Assembly (NCBI GenBank): GCA_016177845.1
Contig: JACOUO010000011.1
Location: 512,326 to 576,325, forward strand
Reading direction: 5' to 3'
From: Deltaproteobacteria bacterium
GTDB taxonomy: Bacteria > Desulfobacterota > GWC2-55-46
Length of the DNA stretch: 64,000 nt
Each line of letters starts with the position of its first letter. The first letter of the stretch is position 1. The translations under genes were made by a program, and so were the position numbers. This document shows positions 12,616 to 52,559 of the stretch, piece after piece. The notes beneath the pieces were generated by a model, which was given only the letters and a program-made list of their open reading frames with translations, did no database searches and had not been told where the DNA came from.

Positions 12616-12618
12616 GGA

Positions 12619-19067: not shown

Positions 19068-19121
19068 TCTCCCATAAAAAAATCTCCTAAGTTGCTGTCA
19101 TAAAGGGGGTTTCGCTCGTGC

Positions 19122-19150: not shown

Positions 19151-19260
19151 TAATTTGAACATTAAAACACAAAAGCTTATATCAGATGGAAGGATATTTG
19201 ACAAAAAAACGGGCAGTGGTATATTGAAGTTGTAAATATCCCTAAACAGAGGTGTTTTGG

Positions 19261-29038: not shown

Positions 29039-30751
29039 TCAACCGCATGTTACCCTGTTTACCTCTTTGAGCGTCGTTTTTCCGTTTAAGGCATTATCAA
29101 TGGCCTTAAGCCTTAAAGAGTTCATGCTGCTTTCAGTCACTTTCCTTTTAAGATTCGATATATTATTGGCGGCTATAGCCTCCCTTATCTCTTCGTCCAG
29201 TTCAAGAAGCTCGATTATCGCCTTTCTCCCGCGGTAGCCTGTATTGCTGCACTTCCTGCAGCCCTTTCCCTCATAGAAGGTCTTACCTGAATACTCCTTT
29301 TTATCGAGCCCCGCTTCAATAAGCTCTGCCTCGGTTATCTTAAGAGGAGCCTTGCATTCATCACAGATAATCCTTATGAGCCTCTGTGAAAGTATGCAGT
29401 TAAGCGATGAGGCAAAATTATACGGGTCAACCCCCATATGTATGAACCTTCCGATGGCATCAAAGATATTATTGGCCCGTGCTGTCGTAAAGAGGGCATG
29501 GCCGCTTATGGCGGTATTTACTGCAAGCTGGGCTGTTTCAGGGTCGCGTATCTCCCCTACCATTATCTTATCAGGGTCATGCCTTAAAATGGAATTAAGC
29601 CCGCTTGCAAATGTAATCCCCTTCTTGTCATCCACATGTACCTGAACCGCGCCTTTAAGCTCATACTCCACAGGGTCTTCGATTGTAAGTATCTTATGCT
29701 CGCCGCTGTTTATCTCGGAAAGCGCTGCGTAAAGGGTTGTAGTCTTTCCGCTTCCGGCGGGCCCTGTCACCAAAGTCATTCCATACGGCTCCCAGACCTG
29801 CCTTCTGAATACAGCCAGTTCATCATCATTAAAGCCCAAAAGGTCCAGCCTGAACTCATTGGAATCCCCCGTAATATGACCTTTATCAAGTATCCTTACT
29901 ACGGCATCCTCTCCGTTTAACGCAGGGATGATAGATACCCTGAAGTCAATATTTTTATCCCTGAGCCTTAGTTTAAACCTTCCGTTCTGAGGTATTTTCT
30001 TCTCAGCTATGTCAAGCTCGCCTATCACCTTAAGTCTTGAGATTATCACCTGCTGAAATCTCTTCTCAACAGGCTCAACCATCCTGTGCAGCACTCCGTC
30101 TATCCTGTATTTGACTATAAGCCCGTCACGCGCTGATTCGAGGTGAATGTCGCTCGCCCTCTTTGAGACAGCATCATAGATTATCTTGTCAATGAGCCTT
30201 GCCGCAGGGCTTGAGCCTTCGGTTATCTTCTCAAGGGCGACTTCCTCCTGCTCTTCAGCCTCCCTCAAGACCTCCAGCCGCAGGTTCTCCGCAGTCTCTT
30301 CCATTCTTTCAAATCTGCTGCTTTGCACAAGCAGCCTTTCAATGGCGCTTTCAGGGGCGACTATAACTGTGCCTGGTGTCTGCCCCTTCTCCTCTATTAT
30401 CCTGCCGATGCTGTCGAGAGCCATTATGTTGGTGGGGTCTGAGGTTGCTATATAAGATACACCCTTCCTCTTTACGGGAACTACCCTTGATTTATGGAGC
30501 AGTTCAACCGGAATAAGCCTTAGCACCGCTTGATCGACCTCGGTTTCATCAGGCTTCATCACTTCCAGCCCGTATTGCTCGGCTATCCCTATGGCGAATT
30601 GGTTCTCATCTATAAAGCCGAGCCGCATGCAGGATTCTCCGAACCTGACTGAACTCTGCCTCGAATACTTCAGGGCCTCATATATCTGCTCAGGCTTGAT
30701 AAAATTTTTCTCAAGGAGAATATCGCCTAATTTATTCAGACCAAATATCAT
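29039..30751 (-). CDS. Type II secretion/type IV pilus assembly ATPase (GspE/PilB family)
   Basis: 570 aa. Has an N-terminal GSPII_E_N-like domain, Walker A GPAGSGKTT and a tetracysteine motif (CDECK...CRKCSNTG). Confidence 0.85.
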   Translation of the reverse strand: MIFGLNKLGDILLEKNFIKPEQIYEALKYSRQSSVRFGESCMRLGFIDENQFAIGIAEQYGLEVMKPDETEVDQAVLRLIPVELLHKSRVVPVKRKGVSYIATSDPTNIMALDSIGRIIEEKGQTPGTVIVAPESAIERLLVQSSRFERMEETAENLRLEVLREAEEQEEVALEKITEGSSPAARLIDKIIYDAVSKRASDIHLESARDGLIVKYRIDGVLHRMVEPVEKRFQQVIISRLKVIGELDIAEKKIPQNGRFKLRLRDKNIDFRVSIIPALNGEDAVVRILDKGHITGDSNEFRLDLLGFNDDELAVFRRQVWEPYGMTLVTGPAGSGKTTTLYAALSEINSGEHKILTIEDPVEYELKGAVQVHVDDKKGITFASGLNSILRHDPDKIMVGEIRDPETAQLAVNTAISGHALFTTARANNIFDAIGRFIHMGVDPYNFASSLNCILSQRLIRIICDECKAPLKITEAELIEAGLDKKEYSGKTFYEGKGCRKCSNTGYRGRKAIIELLELDEEIREAIAANNISNLKRKVTESSMNSLRLKAIDNALNGKTTLKEVNRVTCG

Positions 30752-30872
30752 GTCATTACCTTCCGAATGTCATTATATATCTTTTCGGCATAATTCAATA
30801 TTCTATTAGAATTAATTACTTTTTGCAATGTGGTTGATAATATTGAGTTTTTTAGGATTAAATTGATAGGGG

Positions 30873-30906
30873 AATAAAAAAGCCAACCGGGAAACCCTGA
30901 TTGGCT
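30873..30906 (-). terminator. Rho-independent terminator downstream of tRNA-Gly
   Basis: On the minus strand: AAAAAATCAA-agccaa-tcagggtttcccgg-ttggct-TTTTTATT. Confidence 0.45.
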
Positions 30907-30917
30907 TTGATTTTTTA

Positions 30918-30991
30918 TGGAGCGGGCGATGGGAATCGAACCCACGTCTAAAGCTTGGGAAGCTTTCATTCTACCATTGAACTACGCCCGC
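30918..30991 (-). tRNA. tRNA-Gly (anticodon CCC)
   Basis: The reverse complement reads GCGGGCGTAGTTCAATGGTAGAATGAAAGCTTCCCAAGCTTTAGACGTGGGTTCGATTCCCATCGCCCGCTCCA. This shows a cloverleaf, a 7-nt anticodon loop TTCCCAA, and an encoded CCA end. Confidence 0.9.
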
Positions 30992-31082
30992 AAGTTAGAT
31001 AATAAAATACCTAAAAAAAAATATTAGTCAAGTCCAAATGTAACCCTAAACACAATAGCAAAGGGAAGTTAATTCATTTTTG

Positions 31083-32768
31083 CTAGAGTATTAATTCTTC
31101 AATTTCAATAGGTGTAAACTCTTTATCTTTTGGAAGTTTTCCAAGAATTTGATTAACAAATTTAAATATTGGCATCGATTTACTTCTTTCCATATTCTTT
31201 GCAAACTCAAATGCTGATAAAGGTTTTCCTTTACTTTGGTCGTATATATAATTATGAGCTTGTTCAAAATTCCTTATGTGTACATATCTATGCGACAGCC
31301 CCGAACTGAAATTGTTCGCCAATACAACTCTATCCCATATTGATTGATTTAATTCCCAAGCACTATTCTTTCGAGGCGAACCATCTTTATTAAAAATAGT
31401 TTTTCCAGTAGAATCTTCTAAATAACGATCATCGCCATCATGGATTATATGTTGGCGAATTCGAAAGTGAGTAAGAATTTCCTGAAAAAATGGAATATTA
31501 TTTTTCGACCCTGTATTAAGAACAAATATGTCGGCAGTTGGTTCAATTTCCTCTAATAGCTCACGGACTACAATCGCCTCTGTATCGCCTTCTACCAAAA
31601 TAACATCATCAGAGAAAAATATTTCACACAGATGAGGATTAAACCTATTATTCATTTGAACCATTTTCTTACGCTCATCATTTATACCAAAAAGATTATC
31701 TCCGGCTTGGTAAACTGATATCCTGCGCGCCTCTCTTTGCAATCTAGCTAATGATGTATGGGGTTTGGAAAGATCTATAAGAGCAGGACTATGGGAAGCA
31801 CAAAGCACTTGAAATGGAGATTTATAACAAAGATTATATAAAGAGTTTTTAAGAAGAGAAATTGTTTTTGGATGTAAATAAATTTCAGGTTCTTCAAATA
31901 AAATAATAAAATCTTTACGAGCATCCTCAATGGTTTCTTTTACTAAGCCAAGAAAATTGAACATAGCCTGCCTTATTACTCCGCTACCTTGAGACAGTAT
32001 ATCTTGCTCAATCTCATTAAAATGTCCGTCTTTAATTGTTACTGCATATTCTTTTTCAAGTGACTTTAACAAATCAAATTTATCTTCATCAACGGGTTTG
32101 ATTGACATTTCTAATTCTGGAAATATTTTTTTAAAATTTTCATTTGCTTGATCTTCTATTTTTTTCAGCTTATCTGAAGAAACCAAATTTTCTTTAAGTT
32201 CTTTATATCTTTGCTGAAAATTTTTGCAAAAATTTTCTTCTTCATCCGAAAGTTTTTTAAGAACTGTTTTCTTTATTGTCTCACTAACAAATTTTGATAG
32301 ATCCTCTAGATTGGGCATTGCTGGAATTACAATAGGAGTTGGTGCGTGTTTTTTAAAATGTGACTCAAATCCTCCAAATCCATCTTCCAAAAAACGATTT
32401 ATAGTTGGATCATATGTACTTTTTTGACCTTCCGAATCAGTATCAACCCAAACTTTATTAAATTTAATTAAACCAGTACTATTTACCCATTTATTTAAAC
32501 CTTTTTCTTCGAATTCTTTTTCATCTCCGGTTTCTTTTTGAAAAATTGCCTCAATTTCAATAGGATTTTTCTTTGAGTATCCATGAAAATCATTTAAAGT
32601 TGCTTTCTGTTTTGGTTTAACTAGGTATTCATATGCTGTAAGTACTGTAGATTTACAAGCATTATTTTTACCAATAAGAAAAATGATATCTGAATTTAAA
32701 AATGAAATGGATACAGAAGTTGCGCCAATTCCTCGAAAATTCTTTACAGCAATTTCAACAAGCCTCAT
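31083..32768 (-). CDS. OLD-family ATP-dependent nuclease (N-terminal ABC/AAA_15-type ATPase plus C-terminal Toprim); candidate anti-phage defence protein
   Basis: 561 aa. P-loop LIGKNNACKST near the N-terminus. C-terminal Toprim signatures are LVEGDTE (Glu) and IIHDGDD (DxD). GC content is about 33% against about 50% in flanking genes. It is adjacent to tRNA-Gly. Confidence 0.8.
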   Translation of the reverse strand: MRLVEIAVKNFRGIGATSVSISFLNSDIIFLIGKNNACKSTVLTAYEYLVKPKQKATLNDFHGYSKKNPIEIEAIFQKETGDEKEFEEKGLNKWVNSTGLIKFNKVWVDTDSEGQKSTYDPTINRFLEDGFGGFESHFKKHAPTPIVIPAMPNLEDLSKFVSETIKKTVLKKLSDEEENFCKNFQQRYKELKENLVSSDKLKKIEDQANENFKKIFPELEMSIKPVDEDKFDLLKSLEKEYAVTIKDGHFNEIEQDILSQGSGVIRQAMFNFLGLVKETIEDARKDFIILFEEPEIYLHPKTISLLKNSLYNLCYKSPFQVLCASHSPALIDLSKPHTSLARLQREARRISVYQAGDNLFGINDERKKMVQMNNRFNPHLCEIFFSDDVILVEGDTEAIVVRELLEEIEPTADIFVLNTGSKNNIPFFQEILTHFRIRQHIIHDGDDRYLEDSTGKTIFNKDGSPRKNSAWELNQSIWDRVVLANNFSSGLSHRYVHIRNFEQAHNYIYDQSKGKPLSAFEFAKNMERSKSMPIFKFVNQILGKLPKDKEFTPIEIEELIL

Positions 32769-32899
32769 AAGATTTGCCCTTCTCTAATTTAATTATAAGT
32801 AAAAAATGAATGAAAATATTAATAACATCTTGAAGACAAAAAACAAAGTTAAAATTTATGAGCGACTAAGAATTTTCATAATTCCTTTATCCCCCTGCC

Positions 32900-32928
32900 T
32901 TGCGCGGTTATATGCCCTCTGATATACT
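32900..32928 (+). promoter_or_regulatory. Putative sigma-70 promoter for the 8-gene plus-strand operon
   Basis: TTGCGC-(17 nt)-TATACT, about 45 nt upstream of the aldehyde dehydrogenase ATG. A GGAGG ribosome-binding site precedes the ATG. Confidence 0.35.
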
Positions 32929-32973
32929 TTTTGGGGTATTCATATCAAAAAAATACAATCACAGGAGGGGTTT

Positions 32974-34464
32974 ATGGCGGTCATTAAGAACCTGATAAAC
33001 GGCAAATGGGTGGAGTCCGCATCAGGCAAGACCCTTAATAGCATCAACCCCGCGAATATAGATGAGGTTGTCGGAGTAGTGCCTGCCTCTTCCCGGCCTG
33101 ATGTGGATAAGGCGGTCGAGGCCGCACGGAACGCCTTTGAGAAATGGCGGCTAACCCCAGCCCCCAAAAGAGGCGAAATCCTCTTCAGGGCGGCTGAACT
33201 CATATCAAAGAACAAGGAAGAGCTTGGAAGGCTCGTTACAAGAGAGATGGGCAAGGTACTGCCCGAAGGGCTTGGCGATGTGCAGGAAGCAATCGACATG
33301 GCCTACTACATGGCAGGCGAAGGCAGGAGGCTTTCAGGTGAGACCGTACCTTCCGAACTGCCCTTTAAAGACTGCAAATCTGTCCGTGTTCCTATCGGCG
33401 TATTCGCCCTTATCACCCCCTGGAACTTCCCCACGGCAATTCCCGCGTGGAAGCTCTTTCCAGCCCTCATCAGCGGCAATACCGTAGTTTTCAAGCCTTC
33501 AAGCTATACCCCTGTAGCAGCAACAAGGCTTGTAGAACTGATAGTAGAGGCAGGCATCCCCGAAGGCGTATTGAACCTTATCCACGGGGCAGGAGAAGAG
33601 ATAGGAGAGTACCTTGCCACCCATCCGGGAATAGACGGGGTATCTTTCACAGGCTCAACAGCCGTGGGAGAAAAACTGGCCAAACTCTGCGGAGGGCTTG
33701 ATAAAGAGATATCATGCGAGATGGGCGGCAAAAACCCGATAATCGTCATGGAAGACGCAAAGCTTGACCTTGCCGTTGAGGGCGCAATCTGGGGAGGGTT
33801 TGGCACTACAGGGCAGAGGTGCACAGCCGCAAGCAGGCTCATAGTGCATGAAAAAATACATGATAAATTCCTTGAGATGTTCATCTCAGCCGCAAAGGGC
33901 TTAAAGCTTGGTGACGGGCTTAAGAGCGATACAAAGGTCGGCCCTGTGATAAATGAATCACAGATGAAGAAAGTCCTTGGCTATATCGAAATAGGCAAAA
34001 AAGAAGGCGCAAAGCTCACCCTCGGAGGAAGCGCCCGAACAGAAGGCGGATTAAAGAAAGGCTACTTTATCGAGCCTACCATCTTTACCGAGGTAAAGCC
34101 AAAGATGAGGGTAGCGCAGGAAGAGATATTCGGCCCGGTTGTCTCCATCATAAAGGCAAGAGACATATCAGATGCGATAAATATTGCCAATGGTATCCCG
34201 TACGGGCTCTCATCATCCATATATGCCCAGGATGTGAACTATACCGCTATCGCCGAAAGGGACCTTGACGCAGGCATCGTCTACATCAACGCCCCGACCA
34301 TAGGCGCAGAGATACAGCTCCCCTTCGGAGGGACGAAAAAGAGCGGGCTTGGGCGGAAAGAGGCAGGAGGAAGGGGCGGAGCCCTTGATATGTTCACAAA
34401 ATGGAAGGTAATCTACAGGGACTACAGCGGAAGGCTTCAAAAAGCGCAGATAGATAAAGAGTGA
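32974..34464 (+). CDS. NAD(P)-dependent aldehyde dehydrogenase (ALDH superfamily; semialdehyde or P5C dehydrogenase-like)
   Basis: 496 aa. Contains the catalytic Cys in GQRCTA, the Glu in EMGGKNP and a Rossmann motif GSTAVG. Confidence 0.9.
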   Translation: MAVIKNLINGKWVESASGKTLNSINPANIDEVVGVVPASSRPDVDKAVEAARNAFEKWRLTPAPKRGEILFRAAELISKNKEELGRLVTREMGKVLPEGLGDVQEAIDMAYYMAGEGRRLSGETVPSELPFKDCKSVRVPIGVFALITPWNFPTAIPAWKLFPALISGNTVVFKPSSYTPVAATRLVELIVEAGIPEGVLNLIHGAGEEIGEYLATHPGIDGVSFTGSTAVGEKLAKLCGGLDKEISCEMGGKNPIIVMEDAKLDLAVEGAIWGGFGTTGQRCTAASRLIVHEKIHDKFLEMFISAAKGLKLGDGLKSDTKVGPVINESQMKKVLGYIEIGKKEGAKLTLGGSARTEGGLKKGYFIEPTIFTEVKPKMRVAQEEIFGPVVSIIKARDISDAINIANGIPYGLSSSIYAQDVNYTAIAERDLDAGIVYINAPTIGAEIQLPFGGTKKSGLGRKEAGGRGGALDMFTKWKVIYRDYSGRLQKAQIDKE

Positions 34465-34575
34465 GCCATTATGAAATTCAAGGGGATTTTTCAGAAAACT
34501 TAAAACTTAAGCTGTAACTTTAGGGCTCTTTTTGTTATAATCCGCCTCAATCATATTTTCGCAAAGGAGGGTATT

Positions 34576-35082
34576 ATGGACCCAGTGCATTTTTCAGGGA
34601 AAGAGGTCCTTGAGATGGCCGTAAAGATCGAAGAGAACGGGCTTGTATTTTATACCGAAGCAAGCAAGGAAACACGGTCAATAGAGATAAAAGCTCTCTT
34701 CAAAATGCTTGCCGAAGAAGAAGGCCAGCATATAAAAGTATTTAAAAGACTTAGAGACCTTCTGGATGACGAAGAGTCAGCTACAGAAGCTTTTGACCCT
34801 TACTTAGCCCAGGCTTCAGACTACCTTAAGGCAATGGCGGATACAGAGGTATTCCCTGACCCTAAAAAAGAAGGCAAACGCCTCGCGACAACTGTATACG
34901 ATGAGAACGATGCGCTTGATGTGGCAATCGGCCTGGAAAAGGACTCATTGCTTTTCTATTACGAGCTCCAGAGGATGATAAACCAGAAGGATAAGCAAAT
35001 AGTCGAAGAGCTTATCAATCAGGAAAAGGAACACTTAAAGAAGCTCACCGGGCTGCAGCAGAAGATGTTCGGTTCAAATTAA
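34576..35082 (+). CDS. Ferritin-like diiron protein (rubrerythrin-like domain without a rubredoxin domain)
   Basis: 168 aa with two E-x(n)-EExxH-type motifs (EENGLVFYTEA...EEEGQHIK and EKDSLLFYYEL...QEKEHLKK), indicating a four-helix-bundle diiron site. Confidence 0.6.
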   Translation: MDPVHFSGKEVLEMAVKIEENGLVFYTEASKETRSIEIKALFKMLAEEEGQHIKVFKRLRDLLDDEESATEAFDPYLAQASDYLKAMADTEVFPDPKKEGKRLATTVYDENDALDVAIGLEKDSLLFYYELQRMINQKDKQIVEELINQEKEHLKKLTGLQQKMFGSN

Positions 35083-35108
35083 GAGAGAGATGAAAGGAGT
35101 CTTTTGGT

Positions 35109-35360
35109 ATGACGACACAGTATGTAAAGACTTATTCCTGCCCTACATGTTCAGGACTTGCAAGCGGAAGGGGGCACCTTTGCCACCCGAGCACGGAGAA
35201 CCTTCCATTCACCTGCGAATTCTGCGGTAAATCAGTCAACGACCCGAGGCATGTCTGCCCGACAATGGTGGACAAGCTTGAATATATCTGCAAGAAATGC
35301 GGCAGGCTCTCAATCTATGACACGCAGTTATGCGAGCCAGCTCCCATTGACGAGGAATAA
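35109..35360 (+). CDS. Small Cys-rich metal-binding protein (three CxxCG motifs; rubredoxin/zinc-ribbon-like)
   Basis: 83 aa: CPTCSG, CEFCGK and CKKCGR, plus HLCH, HVCP and LCEP. It is 26 nt downstream of the ferritin-like gene and is preceded by a GGAG ribosome-binding site. Confidence 0.5.
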   Translation: MTTQYVKTYSCPTCSGLASGRGHLCHPSTENLPFTCEFCGKSVNDPRHVCPTMVDKLEYICKKCGRLSIYDTQLCEPAPIDEE

Positions 35361-35429
35361 CGCCTCCCGGTGCTGATGGTTTTCTGGTCGGAGATAAAAA
35401 AAACCTTTGTTGCCGCAACCGGAAACTGA

Positions 35430-36704
35430 ATGAATGACGACATTATAAATAGAGCCCGAAAATATATTGCCCCTGCCCTTGTCTTCCACACTGAAATCGT
35501 TGCTAAAAGTTCAAACGGTATCTATGTGGAAGACATAGGCGGCAAGGTATATATGGACTTTTCCGCTGGGCTTGCCACTGCCAATGCAGGCCATTGCCCG
35601 TCTGAAGTAACCGAGGCGGCCAAGGCACAGATGGATAAGCTCATCCATTCAGGCTGCATTTTTTATTATGAATCTGAAGTAAACCTTGCAGAAAAGCTCG
35701 CCCGCATAACACCGGAAGGCATTGAAATGTTCTTTTTCTCAAACAGCGGGGCCGAAGCAGTCGAAGGGGCGGTAAAGCTTGCGAGATATGCAACAGGTAG
35801 ACAAGGCATCATAGCATTTACAGGCAGCTTCCACGGCAGGACAATGGGCGCATTAAGCCTTACTGCCTCAAGCTCAAAGTACAGGAAAAATTATCATTCG
35901 CTTCTGCCAAGCGTCTATCATGCTCCCTACCCTTACTGCTACAGGTGCCATATGGGGCAGAGCAGGATAGATTGCAAGACAGAATGCTTTGATTATCTTG
36001 AAAGGATACTCAGGTACCAGATATCTCCGCAGGAGGTAGCCTGCATTATTATTGAACCTGTTCTCGGCGAAGGCGGTTATATTGTACCTCCCGCTGATTT
36101 TATGGTAAAACTTAGAGACCTTTGCACAAAAGAAGGCATATTATTGATAGCTGATGAGGTGCAGAGCGGATTCGGCAGGACAGGAAAATGGTTCGCCATA
36201 GAACACTGCGGCATTGCCCCTGATATTATGACAATGGCAAAGGGGATAGCCTCAGGCTTTCCCTTAAGCGCGGTAGGCGCGCGTAAAGATATAATGTCCA
36301 AGTGGGCTCCGGGCGCGCACGGCACTACATTCGGGGGAAACCCTGTCTCATGCGCCGCAGCCTGCGCAACGATTGACAAGATAGAAAAAGAGTCCCTGCT
36401 TGATAACGCGATTAATGTAGGGCTGTACGCAATCAACCGCCTGCGTACTATTGCGGAGAACCACACCGCGATCGGGGATGTGCGCGGCCTTGGCCTGATG
36501 ATAGGGGTTGAGCTCATTAAACCGGACGGCAGTCCCGATAAGGAATTACTGGAACGAGTCATGAAAAGATGTTTAGAAAATGGGCTTATAATAATTGAGT
36601 GCGGGATTGACAAGAACATTGCCCGCATTATGCCTCCGCTGACCACAACCGAGTCTGAGATGAAAAAGGCCCTCGATATTTTTGAGGAGGCGCTTGTTGA
36701 TTAG
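35430..36704 (+). CDS. Class-III PLP-dependent aminotransferase (GABA/ornithine/acetylornithine aminotransferase-like)
   Basis: 424 aa. PLP-lysine region DIMTMAKGIASGFPLSAVG, plus GSFHGRT and DEVQSGFGRTG motifs. Confidence 0.85.
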   Translation: MNDDIINRARKYIAPALVFHTEIVAKSSNGIYVEDIGGKVYMDFSAGLATANAGHCPSEVTEAAKAQMDKLIHSGCIFYYESEVNLAEKLARITPEGIEMFFFSNSGAEAVEGAVKLARYATGRQGIIAFTGSFHGRTMGALSLTASSSKYRKNYHSLLPSVYHAPYPYCYRCHMGQSRIDCKTECFDYLERILRYQISPQEVACIIIEPVLGEGGYIVPPADFMVKLRDLCTKEGILLIADEVQSGFGRTGKWFAIEHCGIAPDIMTMAKGIASGFPLSAVGARKDIMSKWAPGAHGTTFGGNPVSCAAACATIDKIEKESLLDNAINVGLYAINRLRTIAENHTAIGDVRGLGLMIGVELIKPDGSPDKELLERVMKRCLENGLIIIECGIDKNIARIMPPLTTTESEMKKALDIFEEALVD

Positions 36705-38877
36705 GTTTCAAAAGGCTTTTGCCGTCCTGATATCCATCGCAGTCCTGATTATCTTTTCCATCCAGCTTGATTATCTCTTCGCAGGAAGGATTCCCCAGTC
36801 AGAGAGCCTGGTCGCTGTCGCGAGGTTTTTCAGCCTCGTTGGCAACGGTCTATTTCTAATTTCTGTATGCGCCATAATTTTCGGGATAGGATACCGGCGC
36901 AGGAATATGGAAATAAAAGAGGCAGGTATAAGAGGAATACTCTCCGTCATTGTCGGAGGGGTTGCCGTACATATTCTCAAGGCAGCCTTTGAACGCCCCC
37001 GCATCGAGCACGGAAGCGATGCCATATTCCACTTCCTTCAGAACCCGTCTTTTTTCGACCTTACAGGAAAGTATAATTCTTTTCCGTCAGGCCACACGAC
37101 AGTAACTTTTGCGGTTGCTTATGTATTATCAAAGAAGTTCCCACGCCTGATGCCCCTCTTTTATCTTATAGCGTTATTGGTAGCGGCTTCCCGTGTCTAT
37201 CTCGGCTCGCATTACCCCACTGACACCCTGATAGGCGCTTTCCTCGGAATCTCGGTAGGGTATCTCCTTATGACAAGGGAGCGGATAGCAGAGAAATGGC
37301 TCATAGCAGGTCTTGCCGTTCTTATCATATCCGTTTCATTTTTCAAGACCGGCGGCTTCCTTCTCTTTGATGTTGATGAAGCGGTCTTTTCAGAGGCGTC
37401 AAGGGAGATGGTAGAGACAGGCGACCTTATAACGCCCACATACAATTACGAACCGAGATATGATAAGCCCATTCTCATATACTGGTTCATGTCCGCGGCG
37501 TTTACCTTCTTCGGCATCACCGAATTCGCCGCAAGGTTTACCTCAGGGCTATTCGGCACGCTCCTCGTGCTGATGACATTTTTCTTCATAAGGCGCAACA
37601 AAGGCAACGGCGCAGCTCTATTCGTCTCGCTCGCGCTCCTGTTAAACCTTGAATACTTCGTCTATACGCACTCCGCAGTGACGGATATGACCCTTGCCTT
37701 TTTCATCACGGCATCCGTTTACTCGTTCTATCTGGCTATACGGGAAAATAAGCGGTTATGGTATATGTCGTTCTGGGCAGCTTCAGCCTTGGCCGTGCTT
37801 ACAAAGGGCGTTATCGGCATACTCTTCCCTGTTGTAATAGGGTTTTTATTCCTGTTCCTTTCCAAAAAGCTCTCAAGGGCAAAGGACTTTTTAAAACCGT
37901 CGTACATCGCTCAGTTCCTTTTGATATCAGTGCCCTGGTTTGCGGCTGAATTCTATGTGAACGGCTGGGAGTTCTTCAACGCATTTATCATAAAGCACCA
38001 CTTCCAGAGATATTCGGAAGTCATCTCAAGCCACAGCGGCCCGTTCTACTACTACATCATCGTCCTATTGATAGGCTTTTTCCCGTGGGTCTCAATGCTC
38101 CCCACAGGCATATACAAAGGCTACAAGGAAAAAAGCTCAAAAGACTCTGACGGCCTGTATCTCCTGACATCCATATGGTTTGTCTTTGTGCTCATATTCT
38201 TCTCAATCGCAAAGACAAAACTGCCTAACTACATATTCCCTCTCTATCCTCCCGCGGCGATAATGGCAGGTCTTGTCATAGCGGAGATAGCCGGCAAGAG
38301 CCCGGAGAGGAAAAAGAACGGAATATACATAATGATGATACTTGCTGGCATCATTGCCAATGCCATCTTCGTATTGCCGTTCATTGAGATGAAGGCTCAG
38401 ATACCGTTTAACCCCATCTTCTTCTTTGAGCTCGGCCTGATATTCTTCATTATCGCTGTGCTTGCGCTTGTAGCCATTTTCAGGCCAATGCCCGCCATGC
38501 TCGGCATCGCGGGCATGTCAGCCGTACTTATTATTTTCCTTAGATTGTACGCGCTCCCCCCTGTAAATATCTTTTTCCAGAAGACGCTCTATACTTATTC
38601 CACCTACGCCCGCAACCTGGGCAAGGACGGGGTCTTGGCGACTTATGAGATAAACAAACCTTCCATTGCGTTCTACTCACAGCGAAAGGTCATAAAAATA
38701 GAGCAGAGGGATGCCTGCAACATAAAAGAGTTCGCCAAAAAACAAAAATTCCTCCTTATCACAAGCCCGTCAAGATACAACGAGGTCAAAGACTACGAAG
38801 GGCTTAAAGTGATAGACTCTACAAAAGAATACATGCTCCTTGGCACCGAAGGCCTGCCTCCATTCCAGGCCCGCTGA
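36682..38877 (+). CDS. Fusion membrane protein: N-terminal PAP2 phosphatase plus C-terminal ArnT/PMT-like GT-C glycosyltransferase
   Basis: 731 aa. PAP2 motifs are KAAFERPR (KxxxxxxRP), FPSGHT (PSGH) and SRVYLGSHYPTD (SRxxxxxHxxxD). The downstream region has the ArnT-like DEAVFSEASREM and YDKPILIYW motifs and more than 10 transmembrane helices. It overlaps the preceding gene by 23 nt. Confidence 0.75.
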   Translation: MRRRLLIRFQKAFAVLISIAVLIIFSIQLDYLFAGRIPQSESLVAVARFFSLVGNGLFLISVCAIIFGIGYRRRNMEIKEAGIRGILSVIVGGVAVHILKAAFERPRIEHGSDAIFHFLQNPSFFDLTGKYNSFPSGHTTVTFAVAYVLSKKFPRLMPLFYLIALLVAASRVYLGSHYPTDTLIGAFLGISVGYLLMTRERIAEKWLIAGLAVLIISVSFFKTGGFLLFDVDEAVFSEASREMVETGDLITPTYNYEPRYDKPILIYWFMSAAFTFFGITEFAARFTSGLFGTLLVLMTFFFIRRNKGNGAALFVSLALLLNLEYFVYTHSAVTDMTLAFFITASVYSFYLAIRENKRLWYMSFWAASALAVLTKGVIGILFPVVIGFLFLFLSKKLSRAKDFLKPSYIAQFLLISVPWFAAEFYVNGWEFFNAFIIKHHFQRYSEVISSHSGPFYYYIIVLLIGFFPWVSMLPTGIYKGYKEKSSKDSDGLYLLTSIWFVFVLIFFSIAKTKLPNYIFPLYPPAAIMAGLVIAEIAGKSPERKKNGIYIMMILAGIIANAIFVLPFIEMKAQIPFNPIFFFELGLIFFIIAVLALVAIFRPMPAMLGIAGMSAVLIIFLRLYALPPVNIFFQKTLYTYSTYARNLGKDGVLATYEINKPSIAFYSQRKVIKIEQRDACNIKEFAKKQKFLLITSPSRYNEVKDYEGLKVIDSTKEYMLLGTEGLPPFQAR

Positions 38878-38948
38878 CTTGATTTTTCCGTCTTACCTGT
38901 ATATCCTTTAAAAGTCAGGGCAGAGTTGATAGCCCTCAGCTAAAACCT

Positions 38949-40262
38949 ATGAAGAAAAAAGCGATCATAATGGGTGCGGCAGGACGGGATTTTCACAACT
39001 TCAACACCTATTTCAGGCACAACGAAGATTACGAAATCACCGCTTTCACCGCAACCCAGATACCATTCATAAGTAACAGGACATATCCTCCAAGCCTTTC
39101 AGGCCCGCTTTATCCTGACGGCATCCCCATACACCCCGAAGAAGAATTAGCTGGACTTATAAAATCACAGAACATTGACGAAGTAATATTTTCATACAGC
39201 GATGTTTCGCATGATTATGTCATGCACAGGGCGTCTCTTGTGACCGCGCTCGGGGCCGACTTCGTCCTCCTTGGGTTTGAAAAAACAATGCTCAAATCAA
39301 GTAAGCCTGTCATATCGGTCTGCGCGGTAAGAACAGGCTGCGGCAAGAGCGGCGTTACAAGATACATTGGAAAGCTATTGAAAGAGCTTGGCAGAAAGCC
39401 TGTTGCCATAAGACACCCAATGCCTTACGGTGACCTTGAAAAACAGGCTGTACAACGCTTCTCCAAACCCCAGGATTTAACAGAGGCAAACTGCACGATT
39501 GAAGAGATGGAAGAATATGAGCCCCTTATCAATGCGGGCATTACCGTATATGCGGGAGTGGATTACGAAAAGATATTGAGAAGGGCTGAACAAGAGGCAG
39601 AGATAATAATATGGGACGGCGGCAATAATGACCTGCCCTTTATAAGGCCTGACCTCTCACTTGTGGTAGCTGACCCGTTAAGGACAGGCCATGAGCTTTC
39701 ATACTATCACGGAGAAGCAAATTTAAGAAGAGCGGATTGCGTAATCATAAATAAGGCAAACTCCGCAAAGTGTGATGATATTGAACAGCTGAAAAAGAAT
39801 ATAAGGTCGGTCAACACAACCGCTCAAATAATACTTACAGCCTCTTCGGTTGATGTTGAGGAGCCGATAAAAGGCAAAAGGGTACTCGTCATAGAGGACG
39901 GCCCTACCCTCACCCACGGCGGTATGGATTACGGCGCAGGCATCATAGCCGCAAGGCTCTACGGGGCAGAGCCCGTTGATGCGAGCCCTTATGCGGTAGG
40001 CACTATCAAAGATACGCTTTCGCGTTATCCCCATATAAAAAACCTTCTTCCTGCAATGGGCTACTCGCCAACACAAATGCGCGAGCTTGAAGAGAGTATA
40101 AACAGGACTCCCTGCGACATGGTCCTTATTGCCACTCCAATCGACCTTGCCAAACTTATCAACATCAAAAAACCTTTTACAAGGGTGCATTACGGGATAG
40201 CTGAGATTGAAACCCCAGGGCTTAAAGGCGTTATAACACAATTCCTTAAGAGGACAGCGTGA
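38949..40262 (+). CDS. P-loop protein of the COG2403/cyclic-2,3-diphosphoglycerate-synthetase-like family (tentative)
   Basis: 437 aa with a Walker-A-like TGCGKSGVT. The family assignment is from memory only. It overlaps the following gene by 4 nt. Confidence 0.45.
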   Translation: MKKKAIIMGAAGRDFHNFNTYFRHNEDYEITAFTATQIPFISNRTYPPSLSGPLYPDGIPIHPEEELAGLIKSQNIDEVIFSYSDVSHDYVMHRASLVTALGADFVLLGFEKTMLKSSKPVISVCAVRTGCGKSGVTRYIGKLLKELGRKPVAIRHPMPYGDLEKQAVQRFSKPQDLTEANCTIEEMEEYEPLINAGITVYAGVDYEKILRRAEQEAEIIIWDGGNNDLPFIRPDLSLVVADPLRTGHELSYYHGEANLRRADCVIINKANSAKCDDIEQLKKNIRSVNTTAQIILTASSVDVEEPIKGKRVLVIEDGPTLTHGGMDYGAGIIAARLYGAEPVDASPYAVGTIKDTLSRYPHIKNLLPAMGYSPTQMRELEESINRTPCDMVLIATPIDLAKLINIKKPFTRVHYGIAEIETPGLKGVITQFLKRTA

Positions 40263-41107
40263 GGAGACTGCTCGCCTTTTTCGCTAAAAGGTATATAGCA
40301 GGCATAGAGATAAAAAATGCCATTGAGGCCGCGCGCAGGCTCAACAGCCTCGGCATACTTGCTACAATAGATAACCTTGGCGAAAATGTATCCGATATCC
40401 ATAAGGCAAAACTTTCGGTACGGGAGTATCACAGGCTGCTTGAAGAGATAGACAAGGCAAAGGTCAAATCAACAGTATCGCTTAAACTGACCCACCTTGG
40501 GCTTGATATCTCAGAAGACCTTGCAAGGGCAAATGCCGAGTCAATACTCAGAAAGGCAATGCAGTACGGCAATTCAGTCTGCCTCGATATGGAGGGCTCA
40601 GGATATACCAAAAGGACAATCGATATATGCCTCTCATTAAGGAAAGATTATCCTAATGTGAGCATCGCCATACAGAGCTATCTTAAAAGAAGCGCAGCTG
40701 ACATAACGCTCCTCAATAAAAATAGTATTAGCGTAAGGCTTGTCAAAGGCGCTTACAAAGAACCGCCTGAAATAGCATTTGCGGATAAGAAAGATGTGGA
40801 TGCGAATTATGAGGCTCTGATGAAAGAACTTCTCCTGCACGGAAACAGGCCTGCCATAGCAACGCATGATGAGAGGCTGATAAATGAGGCTATCAGGTTT
40901 GCCAATGACAACGCAATCGGAAAAGAAAGCTTCGAGTTCCAGATGCTCCTTGGGATAAAAAGAGGGCTGCAGAAAAGGCTTGCTGACGAAAGTTTTAAGA
41001 TGCGGGTATATGTGCCTTACGGGGCTGAATGGCTCCCTTATACCCTTCGAAGGTTTAGGGAGCGCAAGGAAAATATCTATTTTGTATTAAAGAATATCTT
41101 TGACTAA
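40259..41107 (+). CDS. Monofunctional proline dehydrogenase (PutA PRODH-domain family)
   Basis: 282 aa with a TIM-barrel PRODH-like sequence (LSLKLTHLGL, VCLDMEGSGYT, VRLVKGAY, IATHDERLI). Its start overlaps the stop of the upstream gene. Confidence 0.7.
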   Translation: MRRLLAFFAKRYIAGIEIKNAIEAARRLNSLGILATIDNLGENVSDIHKAKLSVREYHRLLEEIDKAKVKSTVSLKLTHLGLDISEDLARANAESILRKAMQYGNSVCLDMEGSGYTKRTIDICLSLRKDYPNVSIAIQSYLKRSAADITLLNKNSISVRLVKGAYKEPPEIAFADKKDVDANYEALMKELLLHGNRPAIATHDERLINEAIRFANDNAIGKESFEFQMLLGIKRGLQKRLADESFKMRVYVPYGAEWLPYTLRRFRERKENIYFVLKNIFD

Positions 41108-41118
41108 AACAAAAAAAA

Positions 41119-41628
41119 TTATTTCTTGTCAGTCGGGTAAGGAAGTGCGCACTCGGACGGGCTGCCTTTTATCTTTTCAATGGTATGGCATAGCGCAGGC
41201 ATTACTACCGCAAGGTTCTCCCTTACTGCCCTCGGGCTTCCCGGAAGATTTATGATAAGGGATTCGCCCCTGATTCCGCACACAGCCCTTGATATCATGG
41301 CGTTCGGTGTTTTCTTAAGGCTCTCCGCCCTCATCGCCTCTGACATGCCCGGCAGTTCCCTCTCTATCACTGCCTTTGTAGCCTCAGGCGTTACATCCCT
41401 TGGGGTTACGCCTGTGCCGCCTGTAGTAAGTATCAGGTCGAGCTTCTTAATATCGGCATACTCGATGAGCTTTTCCCTTATTACAGAGGTCTCATCAGGG
41501 ATTACCTCATAGGCCTTGACCTGAGCGGGAAGCTCAATTATCATGCGCTCGATTTCCTTGCCGCTTAAATCCTCCCTCTCGCCCCTTGAGCCCTTATCGC
41601 TCATTGTAAGTATGCCTACTGTTATCAT
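41119..41628 (-). CDS. mog: Molybdopterin adenylyltransferase/MoaB-MogA family protein
   Basis: 169 aa containing MSDKGSRGEREDLSGK and the GGTGVTPRDVTPEA motif (GGTG). Confidence 0.8.
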   Translation of the reverse strand: MITVGILTMSDKGSRGEREDLSGKEIERMIIELPAQVKAYEVIPDETSVIREKLIEYADIKKLDLILTTGGTGVTPRDVTPEATKAVIERELPGMSEAMRAESLKKTPNAMISRAVCGIRGESLIINLPGSPRAVRENLAVVMPALCHTIEKIKGSPSECALPYPTDKK

Positions 41629-41649
41629 CTTATTCTTTCCCGTTTGGTT

Positions 41650-42081
41650 TTATGGTGTCTCGGAGACCCAGACATCCCCTGTCTTTGTAGTCTCCCGTTT
41701 CCAGATAGGCGTAGTGCGTTTAAGCTCTGTTATCGCCCATTCACAGGCCATGAAAGCATCATTACGGTGGGCTGAAGCAGCCACAATCAAAACGATATCC
41801 TCTCCGACATCGATATTGCCTATCCTGTGTACAATGCCCATCTCAATGATATTGAAGTTCTTAAGCGCCCTCTCTCGGATGTCTTTAAGCTTGTTCTCAG
41901 CCATCCCGGGATAGTGCTCAAAATCAAGCCCTGATATCTCAAAGCCTTTTGAGTTGTCCCTTCCGGTACCGAGGAATGTCACTACCGCGCCTATGCCCTT
42001 CGAGGCCTTCTTTACATTTTCCATCTCAGCTTCTATTGAAAAATTCTCTCTTTGTATTCTTACAAGTTCCGGCATTTTCAT
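41650..42081 (-). CDS. moaE: Molybdopterin synthase catalytic subunit MoaE
   Basis: 143 aa with MoaE-like conserved regions. It is adjacent to moaD. Confidence 0.8.
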   Translation of the reverse strand: MKMPELVRIQRENFSIEAEMENVKKASKGIGAVVTFLGTGRDNSKGFEISGLDFEHYPGMAENKLKDIRERALKNFNIIEMGIVHRIGNIDVGEDIVLIVAASAHRNDAFMACEWAITELKRTTPIWKRETTKTGDVWVSETP

Positions 42082-42125
42082 CTACCTTATTTTAATTTGA
42101 CTGAAAGCTGACGCTCAAAGAAAGA

Positions 42126-42374
42126 CTAACCGCCTGAGAACGGCGGAAGAAGCCCAATCTCATCTCCGTCCTTGATGACGGTGTTTTTGTCGGCGAATTC
42201 CTGATTTACGGAAATGAATACCGAACGGCTGGCGAATACGCCCTCAAGAGCCGGGAAATCTTTTTTCAGCATCCCCTTAAGCTCTTCAAGAGTAATCGTG
42301 CCCTCGATATTATACTGCTTGGCCTCTGCTTTTGTAAGGTTCTTAAGCATGGCGAAAAATTTTACTGATATCAT
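42126..42374 (-). CDS. moaD: Molybdopterin synthase sulfur-carrier subunit MoaD
   Basis: 82 aa, ThiS/MoaD fold, with a C-terminal Gly-Gly (..PPFSGG). Confidence 0.7.
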   Translation of the reverse strand: MISVKFFAMLKNLTKAEAKQYNIEGTITLEELKGMLKKDFPALEGVFASRSVFISVNQEFADKNTVIKDGDEIGLLPPFSGG

Positions 42375-42376
42375 TT

Positions 42377-44710
42377 TCAGTTGCTCAATTCCGCGCCAAA
42401 GTTTTTATTCAGGTCGAGCTTGACCCTGCTTGACGCCTTAGAGAAAAGCTCTGCGAATGAGTCCCCTTCATTCGGGAATGAAGCATAGCCGTAAAGTATA
42501 TCGGCCTTGCCTTCTCCGAAGGCCTTGCGGAAGTCCTCGTCATTCGCTATCACCTCGGTTATCGAGCCGAGGAGCCTTGAAATTTTTTCATTCGTATCAA
42601 GGAACAGGAAGCCGAAGGTCTCTTCATTAAGCCTTACCACGACATCAAAGTTCCTTGTCCTTTTCCTGATGTAGCCTATGAGTTTTGTCTCGAACTCAGC
42701 CTTCCTGTTCCTGAAGGCATCCTTGAGCCCTGCTATCCTTACGGTAGCAAGCACAAGGCTCTTATCCATTCTGCGCGCCCTGTTAAGCTCCTGCTCAACC
42801 CTCTGCTCAAAGAGATGGAGCGGCGTCTGCCCTGTCTCAAGCTTCCTCTCAGGCTTCTGCTCTGCCCTGGAGTTAAGCATTATGACATTGGCAAGCGCCT
42901 TTTCGGCATAGACCGCGAACCTTGTGAATGTATCGGCGTCAGCCCTGGAAAAAGCGCATGGGTAAACGGTAGCTTCATTCGATTTATTGAATAATGTAAG
43001 TACGGCTATGATGTTGTTCTCAACCCTTAGCGGCAGCGAAAGCACTGACCTGATATAAGGGCTTGCCTCTTCGGAAAATTCCCTCACGACAGCCGTCTTT
43101 TTCCTCAAGACCTCCATTACGGTCTCTTTCTCAATGGGGAGGAAATATTCCCTTATCTTTTTATCGTCAAGCCCGTAGGTAGACACTGTCTGAAAGCGTT
43201 TTGAGCCTGCCTGCTGTATCCTTAAGAGAGAGCCTTCGGCCCCGAGTATCGCGGCAGGGGTGGTTGAAATGATGGTAACAAGCCTTTTGGGGTCTTTTAT
43301 CGATATCATCTCAAGGCCTGCTTCATCTACAGCGAACATCTTCCTTGACCTGAGCTTTTCTTTTTCATGCTTATTCTGCTTATAGACGCTCTCAGCTATC
43401 AAGGTCCTTATGTCTTTGAGGAATGACTCATGGTAAACGGATAGCCCGTGTGAAGAGACCACATGGCCGTTAAGCGTGCCGACAAGCGTATTATTTGATA
43501 CCATCGGCAGTGTAAGATATACCCTCTTGGTCGCGCCGTGCTCAGTCCTGTCAACAAGGAACACATCATCCATTGAATCCATTGTCGCGCCTTCCATGCC
43601 CTCGCCTGCCCTGAGGCTCAGCAGCCCAAGACCCTTGGCGTCCTTTATGCTTGAAGCCTGCAGGAAGAGCCTGTTCCTGTCGTCATCATAGATGTATATG
43701 AAACAGGTCAGCCCCGGCACTATTTCGGAAAGCCTTCTGGCTACGACATTAAGCCTCTTATCAAGCGGAGAGGCGGAGGACATGACAGTATCCACCTCTT
43801 TCCAGAATGTGAACTTGGCAGCATCGACCCTCAGGCGTTCGTATTCATTCGACCGCTGGATAACCTCGGCTGCCAGTGAGGCCAGACTTGTGAGGAAGTT
43901 CAGGTCGTCATTTGTAAACACATGGGCTGATTCGCTTGAGCTTACATTTATTACGCCGATGACCTCCCCGTTTACAAGCAGGGGCACGCACATGGAGTTC
44001 TTGACATCGCTCCTGTCCATGGGGCGGGTGAACTCATCTCCCTTTGCCTTGCCTGATATGAGCATGGGCTTGCCTTCTTTGGCAACTTTACCGGAGATGC
44101 CGTCGCCAAGCGGGACCCTTATCTTTCTTATGACCTCTTCATCCATGCCCTTTGCTATCTCAACCCTCAGCGTGCCTTCTTCGGCTGACAGGAGCATGAT
44201 GGAGCCGCGCTCCGCGTGGGTGTATTCGGTAGCAAGTTTTAAAATTACGGAAAGGAGCTCTTTACGGTCTATTGTGAGGCGCACCGCATCGACTATCTCG
44301 CGGAAGGATGAAAGGAGCGTAAACTGCTCATGCCCTTTATCCACGGCGCCTTCTTTGGGGGCTGAGGCCCTTACTCCCCAGATAAGCCTTGTGCTCAGAG
44401 GGCCTAACTTTTCTATGTCCCTGAACTCAGGGCTTTCGAGGAATTTCTCTGTAGCCTGGTCCTGAAGCGCGTTTATGATTATATCAAGGCCCTGCTGTTT
44501 TTTAATTTCGTTAAGGTCGTGGATGATTTTGATATCGAGGTTTTTGGCAAGGCGGTAGCCGAGCTCATTGAGCTTAAAGAGCATGGCATCCCTGTTCGTA
44601 TCGGCAATCATGCAGATACGGCTCTTCCCGTCATTGAGGAGTATGGGCAGGAGCTTGAGCCCTTCCTTGTTGGCGCCGATGATGGCTATGTTCTTAAGGT
44701 CGTTTGGCAT
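42377..44710 (-). CDS. Multi-GAF-domain signalling protein with a C-terminal degenerate GGDEF-like domain
   Basis: 777 aa containing several GAF-like modules. The C-terminal RLNEETFGF replaces the R[YH]GGEEF motif, so it is probably catalytically inactive. Confidence 0.55.
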   Translation of the reverse strand: MPNDLKNIAIIGANKEGLKLLPILLNDGKSRICMIADTNRDAMLFKLNELGYRLAKNLDIKIIHDLNEIKKQQGLDIIINALQDQATEKFLESPEFRDIEKLGPLSTRLIWGVRASAPKEGAVDKGHEQFTLLSSFREIVDAVRLTIDRKELLSVILKLATEYTHAERGSIMLLSAEEGTLRVEIAKGMDEEVIRKIRVPLGDGISGKVAKEGKPMLISGKAKGDEFTRPMDRSDVKNSMCVPLLVNGEVIGVINVSSSESAHVFTNDDLNFLTSLASLAAEVIQRSNEYERLRVDAAKFTFWKEVDTVMSSASPLDKRLNVVARRLSEIVPGLTCFIYIYDDDRNRLFLQASSIKDAKGLGLLSLRAGEGMEGATMDSMDDVFLVDRTEHGATKRVYLTLPMVSNNTLVGTLNGHVVSSHGLSVYHESFLKDIRTLIAESVYKQNKHEKEKLRSRKMFAVDEAGLEMISIKDPKRLVTIISTTPAAILGAEGSLLRIQQAGSKRFQTVSTYGLDDKKIREYFLPIEKETVMEVLRKKTAVVREFSEEASPYIRSVLSLPLRVENNIIAVLTLFNKSNEATVYPCAFSRADADTFTRFAVYAEKALANVIMLNSRAEQKPERKLETGQTPLHLFEQRVEQELNRARRMDKSLVLATVRIAGLKDAFRNRKAEFETKLIGYIRKRTRNFDVVVRLNEETFGFLFLDTNEKISRLLGSITEVIANDEDFRKAFGEGKADILYGYASFPNEGDSFAELFSKASSRVKLDLNKNFGAELSN

Positions 44711-44722
44711 AGCTTTTTAAGG

Positions 44723-46563: not shown

Positions 46564-46616
46564 AAGAAACTCCTTGGAAAATTTTCAGAAACTATTTGAA
46601 AAATAAAGAAAATCAG

Positions 46617-52521: not shown

Positions 52522-52559
52522 AAAAAAGGGCGGAAGCATTGTGCTTCCGTCCTTTTTTT
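52522..52559. terminator. Bidirectional rho-independent terminator between the convergent Gly/Ser/Thr-rich gene and selA
   Basis: aaaaaa-gggcggaagc-attgt-gcttccgtcc-ttttttt. The stem has one mismatch. Confidence 0.6.

Follow-up and report, generated by a model that had tools for sequence, protein, structure and literature searches.

In the archaeon Thermococcus kodakarensis, TK2200 (ArcE) is an "arginine synthetase" that catalyzes the reaction Arg + ADP + Pi <-> citrulline + NH3 + ATP, and the ornithine that derives from it is passed toward the proline node by a class-III ornithine omega-aminotransferase, TK2101 (Michimori, Yokooji, and Atomi, PNAS 2024; PMC11032458). According to that report, ArcE homologs had earlier been labeled putative GTPases, show weak similarity to cyclic 2,3-diphosphoglycerate (cDPG) synthase, which is treated there as a distant outgroup, and in some genomes are encoded close to arcB or arcC; the nearest structure to ArcE is LpxK of Aquifex, and the comparator for TK2200p was LpxK 4EHY. 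The homologs are described as widespread in bacteria and archaea, with hosts that include Thermodesulfobacteria, Acidobacteria, Chloroflexi, Caldisericum, Caldithrix, Nitrospira, and Asgard archaea (PMC11032458). With respect to the cell envelope, the PAP2 protein LpxT was reported in 2026 to interact physically with ArnT in P. aeruginosa (PMC13142001). Here we consider a block of genes (g1 to g7) at positions 32974-41107 of a 64-kb stretch of contig JACOUO010000011.1 from a Deltaproteobacteria bacterium (the window, meaning the whole of that stretch), in which an ArcE-like gene and a gene for a PAP2-ArnT-like fusion lie close together. The block is real and is conserved within an uncultured lineage, and we favor, with a probability of roughly 0.6, the interpretation that it is a composite of three separable modules placed side by side on one strand. 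These are best read as a route from arginine, ornithine, and proline to glutamate, a redox/stress pair (g2-g3), and a lipid A-remodeling enzyme (g5).

The block is occupied by seven co-directional open reading frames (ORFs) on the + strand. They encode an aldehyde dehydrogenase (ALDH) of 496 amino acids (aa) (g1, 32974-34464); a rubrerythrin-like, ferritin-like diiron-carboxylate protein of 168 aa (g2, 34576-35082); a Cys-rich protein of 83 aa (g3, 35109-35360); a class-III (omega-) aminotransferase of 424 aa (g4, 35430-36704); a membrane protein in which a PAP2 (LpxE-like) part is fused to a GT-C (ArnT-like) part (g5, 36697-38877, or from 36682); a P-loop enzyme of the ArcE family, 437 aa long (g6, 38949-40262); and a monofunctional proline dehydrogenase of 282 aa (g7, 40259-41107). 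The spacers measure 111 nucleotides (nt) between g1 and g2, 26 nt between g2 and g3, 69 nt between g3 and g4, and 71 nt between g5 and g6. The g4/g5 overlap is 8 nt from the TTG at 36697 or 23 nt from the TTG at 36682, and g6 and g7 overlap by 4 nt (GTGA), which suggests translational coupling. At its edges, the block meets a divergent gene on the 5' side (31083-32768, - strand) and a convergent gene on the 3' side (41119-41628, - strand). A sequence-only reading of this DNA had spoken of eight genes; the count is seven, its own list names seven, the PAP2 and GT-C parts form one ORF, and a search of the spacers for an eighth gene found no + strand ORF of at least 60 aa beyond the seven. The domain calls of that reading were all upheld by Pfam and NCBIfam.

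The full g1-g7 order is present in at least eight complete, non-redundant contigs, at 48-80% protein identity, from related metagenome-assembled genomes (MAGs) labeled "Deltaproteobacteria" or Thermodesulfobacteriota, as well as in the window and in two truncated contigs (L003 and L006). The most constant unit is g1-g2-g3-g4, which occurs in about 25 loci. It stands alone, with the right end determined, in three of them (L103, L104, and L110) and is joined to g6-g7 without g5 in two others (L124 and L126). In the three more distant loci of the g5 family that were checked, the flanking genes are different and only reduced forms of the block are found, namely g1-g5 (L086), g1-g6 (L088), and g2-g3-g5 without the amino-acid enzymes (L087); given these different flanks, the association is not merely inherited synteny. 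A 72-aa ORF between g3 and g5 in L087 was considered as a remnant of the aminotransferase, but it has no similarity to it and is probably spurious. In Candidatus Sulfobium (L018), the order ALDH, aminotransferase, ArcE (g1-g4-g6) is found without g2, g3, or g5. The neighborhood, whose conservation had been proposed as a check, is thus retained in related genomes far beyond chance. In addition, the separability of its parts speaks against an obligatory biochemical tie of g5 to the amino-acid enzymes.

Comparison of orthologous spacers revealed extended -10 elements that a generic promoter/terminator scan, whose counts were not above those of shuffled sequences, had missed. These conserved elements are preceded, 17-18 nt upstream, by -35-like hexamers. 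Upstream of g1, the predicted promoter P1 (32900-32928, + strand) consists of TTGCGC, a spacing of 17 nt, and TATACT with a TG extension (TGATATACT at 32920-32928), its -10 element lying 46 nt 5' of the g1 ATG; the motif, with a CTTGCC or CTTGTC -35 element, is kept in 16 of 23 distinct orthologous g1-upstream regions. Upstream of g2, P2 (34512-34541, + strand) consists of CTGTAA, 18 nt, and TATAAT, again with a TG extension (TGTTATAAT at 34533-34541) and followed by a conserved CCGCC, and here the -10 element lies 35 nt 5' of the gene. The P2 motif is found in 20 of 24 distinct g1-g2 spacers, that is, in every spacer of at least 84 nt, and is missing only from four spacers of 30-36 nt. By comparison, the extended -10 sequence TGNTATAMT has six copies in the 64-kb window, both strands included. 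A third candidate, P3 (38879-38907, + strand), lies 5' of g6 and consists of TTGATT, 17 nt, and TATCCT; roughly 6 of 11 distinct loci have an element resembling TTGAYT-N16-17-TATCMT directly after the end of g5, which is weaker support than that for P1 and P2. No convincing intergenic terminator was found within the block, and an Rfam scan of positions 30000-43000 found a tRNA-Gly but no riboswitch or leader. Promoter-like elements before g1 and g2, with a less certain one before g6, make it probable that the block is no simple operon but a set of two or three co-directional transcription units. Transcription would start at no fewer than two conserved sigma-70-type promoters, before g1, before g2, and possibly before g6, and the lack of a terminator between them would allow read-through. 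Thus, of the tightly packed single operon that had been proposed, the packing stands, but the single transcript is doubtful; of the internal signals that would split it, one strongly conserved promoter-like element (P2) and one weaker candidate (P3) were found, and no terminator.

The gene that most sharpens the picture of the amino-acid module is g6, which had been described as a COG2403-like P-loop protein. The P-loop is correct: Pfam gives a P-loop with only weak cobW and LpxK matches, and the Walker A (GCGKS) and Walker B (IIIWDGGNND) motifs are both invariant in the alignment of the family. Among proteins of known structure, its sequence relatives are cDPG synthetases (cDPGS) alone, and these are weak, covering residues 210-320, or about 110 of the 437, with E values of 6.5e-11 (9sxb) and 4e-3 (8oru); there is no full-length similarity to the M. 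fervidus cDPGS. An AlphaFold model with a predicted local distance difference test score (pLDDT) of 91, when compared with the PDB by Foldseek, retrieves cDPGS (8oru/8ork) first, with 14-15% identity and template modeling (TM) scores of 0.45-0.49, followed by Aquifex LpxK (4itn/4lkv, E 1e-8). The family itself is large and coherent. More than 8000 homologs were retrieved, the best 120 of which are 63-70% identical to g6, and the 80 loci retained from 593 genome matches come from both bacteria and archaea, with identities of 57-66%. When ORFs were called around 72 of these genome loci and clustered, the commonest neighbor was carbamate kinase (CK; 14 loci, in 10 of them adjacent and on the same strand), and class-III aminotransferases (8), ALDH (6), and ornithine carbamoyltransferase (OTC; 4) were also found. 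Representatives of CK, OTC, and arginyl-tRNA synthetase beside g6 homologs exceed NCBIfam equivalog cut-offs. The homologs carry the database names "GTPase" or "cyclic 2,3-diphosphoglycerate synthase" (P0026, P0117, P0241, and others), but the marginal similarity to cDPGS, together with the arginine-gene neighbors, indicates that these names, found on many entries, are probably wrong. On five concordant descriptors, g6 is very probably a member of the ArcE family rather than an accessory without an assigned role, and it is proposed to catalyze the arginine synthetase reaction. This identity would add arginine as an input and explain the tie to an ornithine-type aminotransferase. As a separate observation, arginyl-tRNA synthetase is encoded directly upstream of the ArcE homolog in six loci (represented by L059, from Anaerolineales), a neighbor not mentioned in the available portions of the ArcE literature.

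The remaining enzymes of this module are assigned at the level of family. Thus, g1 is a clear ALDH (Pfam Aldedh, E 7e-169), whose best NCBIfam models are alpha-ketoglutaric semialdehyde dehydrogenase (553 bits) and then 2,5-dioxovalerate dehydrogenase, all below their equivalog cut-offs. It fails the models for pyrroline-5-carboxylate (P5C) dehydrogenase (PRK03137, 438 versus 648 bits; TIGR01237, 419 versus 660), and it is proposed to be a dehydrogenase of glutamate-5-semialdehyde/P5C or of another C4/C5 omega-semialdehyde. A g1-like ALDH, 53% identical, adjoins ArcE in Ignavibacteriaceae (L068). The g4 product (Pfam Aminotran_3, E 5e-128) exceeds the cut-off of the NCBIfam subfamily PRK08117 (618 versus 574 bits). 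Its nearest solved structures are gamma-aminobutyrate (GABA) aminotransferases, with PuuE/GabT at the top, and the P. horikoshii structure 7vno, which we take to be PH1423. PH1423 is listed as an ornithine delta-aminotransferase (PMC9986279). We propose the same activity for g4, with GABA aminotransferase as the alternative. The RocD model TIGR01885 is not among the 25 best models for g4, and the Sulfobium ortholog of g4 scores 298 bits against its cut-off of 378. Finally, g7 belongs to Pfam Pro_dh (E 7e-37; 128 bits, cut-off 27), falls below the cut-off of NF045947 (ProDh_Thermus; 257 versus 500 bits), and matches the Deinococcus/Thermus proline dehydrogenase structures 4h6q and 2ekg over its full length (E 1e-55 to 1e-57).

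Support for joining these enzymes comes from other genomes. In the Sulfobium locus, the orthologs of g1 (69%), g4 (62%), and g6 (61%) follow one another directly, 7-44 nt apart. In a locus from a Thermodesulfobacteriota single-amplified genome (L030), a canonical ornithine-oxo-acid transaminase (TIGR01885, 532 versus 378 bits) is encoded directly upstream of ArcE, and orthologs of this transaminase occupy the same position in an acidobacterial locus (L031) and one from Chloroflexota (L067) and lie nearby in L046. Consequently, the grouping of ArcE with an ornithine-type aminotransferase and a semialdehyde dehydrogenase is not confined to one phylum. The simplest reading is that g1, g4, g6, and g7 converge on glutamate semialdehyde/P5C, with each substrate and the direction of flux inferred. 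In this scheme, ArcE would convert arginine to citrulline with the formation of ATP, an OTC encoded elsewhere would yield ornithine, g4 would convert ornithine to glutamate semialdehyde, proline would enter the common pool as P5C through g7, and g1 would oxidize the semialdehyde to glutamate. The earlier suggestion that the aminotransferase, proline dehydrogenase, and ALDH form a route to glutamate is thus supported, and it is sharpened by ArcE.

A different account of the same enzymes is a GABA shunt, with g4 as GABA aminotransferase and g1 as succinate-semialdehyde dehydrogenase, in which case ArcE and proline dehydrogenase would be an independent adjacent pair. In its favor are the PuuE/GabT enzymes as top solved relatives of g4, scores of 417 bits for g4 with GABA aminotransferase models and 402 bits for g1 with the succinate-semialdehyde dehydrogenase model of NCBIfam, the occurrence of g1-g4 without g6-g7 in several loci, and the candidate promoter that sets g6-g7 apart. 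However, all of these scores lie below equivalog cut-offs. Furthermore, the contiguous Sulfobium orthologs show ALDH, aminotransferase, and ArcE together in another phylum, the aminotransferase and ArcE genes are 34-41 nt apart in L124 and L126, and a bona fide ornithine aminotransferase lies beside ArcE in three other phyla. A GABA shunt thus appears unlikely, although some weight must be left to it, and a route centered on glutamate semialdehyde is preferred.

The same node is also touched by genes outside the block. Some 4 kb downstream, next to obg-rpmA-rplU, the window carries proA (a 418-aa Aldedh protein) and proB (AA_kinase + PUA) at 45307-47744 on the - strand, an arrangement that is kept in L084. 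The proA and proB products make glutamate semialdehyde for proline, so that biosynthetic and catabolic genes serve one node in one neighborhood.

The second module consists of g2 and g3. The g2 product matches Pfam Rubrerythrin in part, above the cut-off (E 1.6e-14), and its nearest solved structure is TM1526, an uncharacterized ferritin-like diiron protein of Thermotoga (1vjx, E 1e-18). It carries two ExxH motifs (EGQH and EKEH) and paired Glu residues, a diiron four-helix signature; with 168 aa and no C-terminal rubredoxin domain, it is not a full rubrerythrin. The g3 product is built of three tandem CxxC...H-x-C units, in which nine Cys and three His are invariant in the ortholog alignment, and Pfam offers only a double zinc ribbon below the cut-off. 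Its conservation exceeds that of g2 and g5, with 58-75% identity to the window protein among aligned orthologs and 54-79% over all tblastn matches. Scanning metagenomes with the g3 alignment yielded 42 loci, and in nine of these (L108, L112, L113, L115, L116, and L120-L123) a relative of g3 outside the cluster lies directly upstream of a recurring partner, a 464-aa flavoprotein with Pyr_redox_2, Rubredoxin_C, and a LysW-type zinc ribbon. An Fe/Mn superoxide dismutase (SOD) is encoded upstream in four of the nine and an FNR-like reductase downstream in three, and ArsC, a cupredoxin, or a rubrerythrin-like protein is found near g3 relatives in single loci. An exhaustive HMMER search put the g3-type family at about 274 clusters, mostly of 75-120 aa, and found fusions to rubredoxin-desulfoferrodoxin, a superoxide reductase (SOR) (P0477), and to HSP20 (P0377). 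Eukaryotic C2H2 zinc-finger arrays among these matches were taken as similarity of pattern. Given the flavoprotein and SOD neighbors of g3 relatives, the SOR and HSP20 fusions, and the diiron character of g2, the two proteins are probably an oxidative-stress-type pair for peroxide or oxygen defense, in which g3 would act as an electron carrier or redox partner of g2.

Elsewhere in the window are a flavodiiron protein (ODP beta-lactamase + flavodoxin; 22111-23289, - strand), the selenocysteine synthase SelA (52558-53985, - strand), and an AhpC/TSA peroxiredoxin (63154-63738, + strand). Their presence suggests an oxygen-sensitive organism with several defenses against oxidative stress.

The third module is g5. 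Its likeliest start is the TTG at 36697, which lies 6 nt after GAGGAGG and gives a protein of 726 aa, as does the database gene call; the TTG at 36682 would give 731 aa. Pfam PAP2 (75 bits, cut-off 27), PMT (64, cut-off 22.7), and PMT_2 (53, cut-off 26.1) are all exceeded, and the best PDB match is ArnT (5ezm, E 7.5e-42), with LpxE (6ebu) at E 3.5e-8. Its first 200 residues form a PAP2 phosphatase closest to the lipid A 1-phosphatase LpxE, and the remainder is closest to ArnT, with a score of 175 bits against the cut-off of 567 for the ArnT model PRK13279. The PAP2 motifs KAAFERP, FPSGHT, and SRVYLGSHYPTD are present, with PSGH and SRx5Hx3D intact and the first motif spaced more shortly than the canonical Kx6RP; a DVDE loop follows the first GT-C helix, and the predicted order of helices would turn both active sites toward the periplasm. 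The fusion family has many members, and its best 120 matches all come from MAGs labeled like the source of the window. From these features, g5 most likely remodels lipid A phosphates. The reported interaction of LpxT with ArnT makes a covalent PAP2-ArnT fusion plausible and gives it a functional precedent.

Several points weigh against this composite reading. Neither the window nor the orthologous loci yielded an OTC or CK gene when searched, so that the link from arginine to ornithine needs genes located elsewhere. Neither g1 nor g4 clears a substrate-specific equivalog cut-off; g4 is equally close to GABA aminotransferases and to the archaeal ornithine aminotransferase, and the top-scoring models of g1 are those for alpha-ketoglutarate-semialdehyde dehydrogenase. 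The placement of g6 with ArcE comes from descriptors rather than from a direct alignment to the characterized TK2200, and the best 120 matches in a search with an Aciduliprofundum homolog included no Thermococcus entry, being instead proteins from Thermoplasmata, Bathyarchaeota, and similar MAGs. The promoters are predictions from sequence only. Lastly, about 25 loci have g2-g3 placed between g1 and g4, and the g2 promoter seems to drive g4 as well; together these hint at a tie between the redox pair and the aminotransferase closer than independence would imply. It could then be argued that g2 and g3 are working partners of g4 and g1, serving a redox-dependent step or acting as a protective or maturation factor for omega-amino-acid catabolism; we consider this quite improbable. 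In a bolder version, the PAP2/ArnT fusion may place the product of the g1-g4 chemistry on the envelope.

A rival reading is a single integrated pathway, in which g1-g4 produce or alter an amino-acid-derived or amino-sugar moiety that g5 installs on lipid A or another envelope glycan. Class-III aminotransferases do aminate sugar aldehydes in aminoglycoside pathways. Furthermore, the end of g4 overlaps the start of g5 not only in the window but also in L083, L085, L097, L098, and L017, and L086 retains g1-g5, and L088 g1-g6, although their flanks differ. However, g5 is missing from the otherwise complete L124 and L126 and from the g1-g4-only loci L103, L104, and L110, and L087 carries it together with g2-g3 while lacking g1 and g4. 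In addition, the block holds no genes for donor synthesis (an ArnC-type GT2, a flippase, or sugar-nucleotide enzymes), and g4 clears the cut-off for an omega-amino-acid transaminase subfamily, with GABA and ornithine enzymes as its closest structures. One integrated pathway is therefore very improbable. The tie between amino-acid metabolism and envelope remodeling that the sequence-only reading had put forward is not supported by these loci, and nothing in the data points to a new pathway from amino acids to the cell envelope; its fallback, a "composite stress operon," stays the best description of the whole block. Least of all is it to be expected that g6 is a cDPGS or GTPase and the cluster lacks an arginine input, for although source annotations name its homologs so and cDPGS tops both the sequence and the structure matches in the PDB, this similarity is weak where that within the family reaches 57-70% across bacteria and archaea, the neighbors are arginine/ornithine genes rather than glycolytic or 2-phosphoglycerate kinase genes, and the ArcE report sets cDPGS apart as an outgroup (PMC11032458).

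The surroundings of the block are of some interest in their own right. Directly 5' of it, at 30918-32768 (- strand), lies a low-GC island (GC 0.29-0.33 versus about 0.47) with a solitary OLD-family nuclease (AAA_15 + OLD-like TOPRIM; PADLOC "Old," E 3e-71), whose gene adjoins tRNA-Gly(CCC) (30918-30991). The nuclease gene is not at the same position in L083 and L084, the two orthologous loci checked, and is probably a recently acquired defense gene at a tRNA hotspot. On the other side, a GAF-GAF-GGDEF(weak) protein and a PatA_N-domain protein (42377-45130, - strand) are encoded between molybdopterin genes (MoCF_biosynth, MoaE, and MoaD/ThiS) and proA, an arrangement kept in both L083 and L084. 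The stretch at 345-19123 (- strand) holds a flagellar cluster (FliM, FlgE, FliK, FliI-type ATPase, and FliF) and, after it, genes for a large TPR protein and two sigma-54 response-regulator activators. Three ORFs, of 381 aa (19252-20397, + strand), 213 aa (28381-29022, + strand), and 291 aa (50893-51768, - strand), have no Pfam match, and the first two have no PADLOC match either.

The description of ArcE, from an archaeon, dates only from 2024 (PMC11032458), and in the ArcE literature found, no bacterial ArcE is reported as characterized; the cluster gives the family a bacterial context. If the proposed route is correct, an ATP-yielding breakdown of arginine would be coupled to an ornithine-type aminotransferase, a semialdehyde dehydrogenase, and proline dehydrogenase, and both arginine and proline would drain to glutamate. 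Two by-products of the analysis are an uncharacterized family of small triple Cys/His proteins tied to SOD, SOR, HSP20, and a rubredoxin-reductase-like enzyme, and a natural PAP2-ArnT fusion that parallels the reported LpxT-ArnT interaction.

How, then, does the block compare with systems already described? Like ArnT of Cupriavidus (5EZM) and LpxE of Aquifex (6EBU), whose folds it joins, g5 has phosphatase motifs and an acidic GT-C loop that would face the periplasm, and in contrast to LpxT and ArnT of P. aeruginosa, its two partners are covalently fused. It differs from ArnT systems in having no arn or pmr genes nearby and in missing the ArnT equivalog cut-off, and lipid A is its putative target. 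With the rubrerythrin, rubredoxin, NADH:rubredoxin oxidoreductase, and superoxide reductase defenses of anaerobes, g2 shares the diiron four-helix signature, and relatives of g3 adjoin a rubredoxin-reductase-like flavoprotein or SOD or are fused to SOR. However, g2 has no rubredoxin domain and is closest to TM1526, and g3 is unlike rubredoxin, since its three CxxC...HxC units resemble tandem C2HC zinc fingers.

The amino-acid module follows the logic of the arcABC, roc (RocF-RocD-RocA), and Put operons, in which arginine is taken through ornithine and semialdehyde/P5C to glutamate, and, as in Put (proline dehydrogenase + P5C dehydrogenase), proline would enter at P5C. Here, however, the first step would be the ATP-forming ArcE rather than the hydrolytic arginine deiminase or arginase, and g1 and g4, both below equivalog cut-offs, are not orthologs of RocA and RocD. 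A further likeness is to the ArcE, ArcB, and ArcC route of T. kodakarensis. The g6 family resembles ArcE in its naming as GTPase, its weak similarity to cDPGS, its LpxK-like fold, its CK and OTC neighbors, and its taxonomic spread, and in both cases a class-III aminotransferase would link ornithine to the proline/P5C node. In contrast to the archaeal route, arcB and arcC are not clustered here, the host is a bacterium, and ArcE is grouped with an aminotransferase, an ALDH, and proline dehydrogenase, a grouping that implies catabolism to glutamate rather than synthesis of proline.

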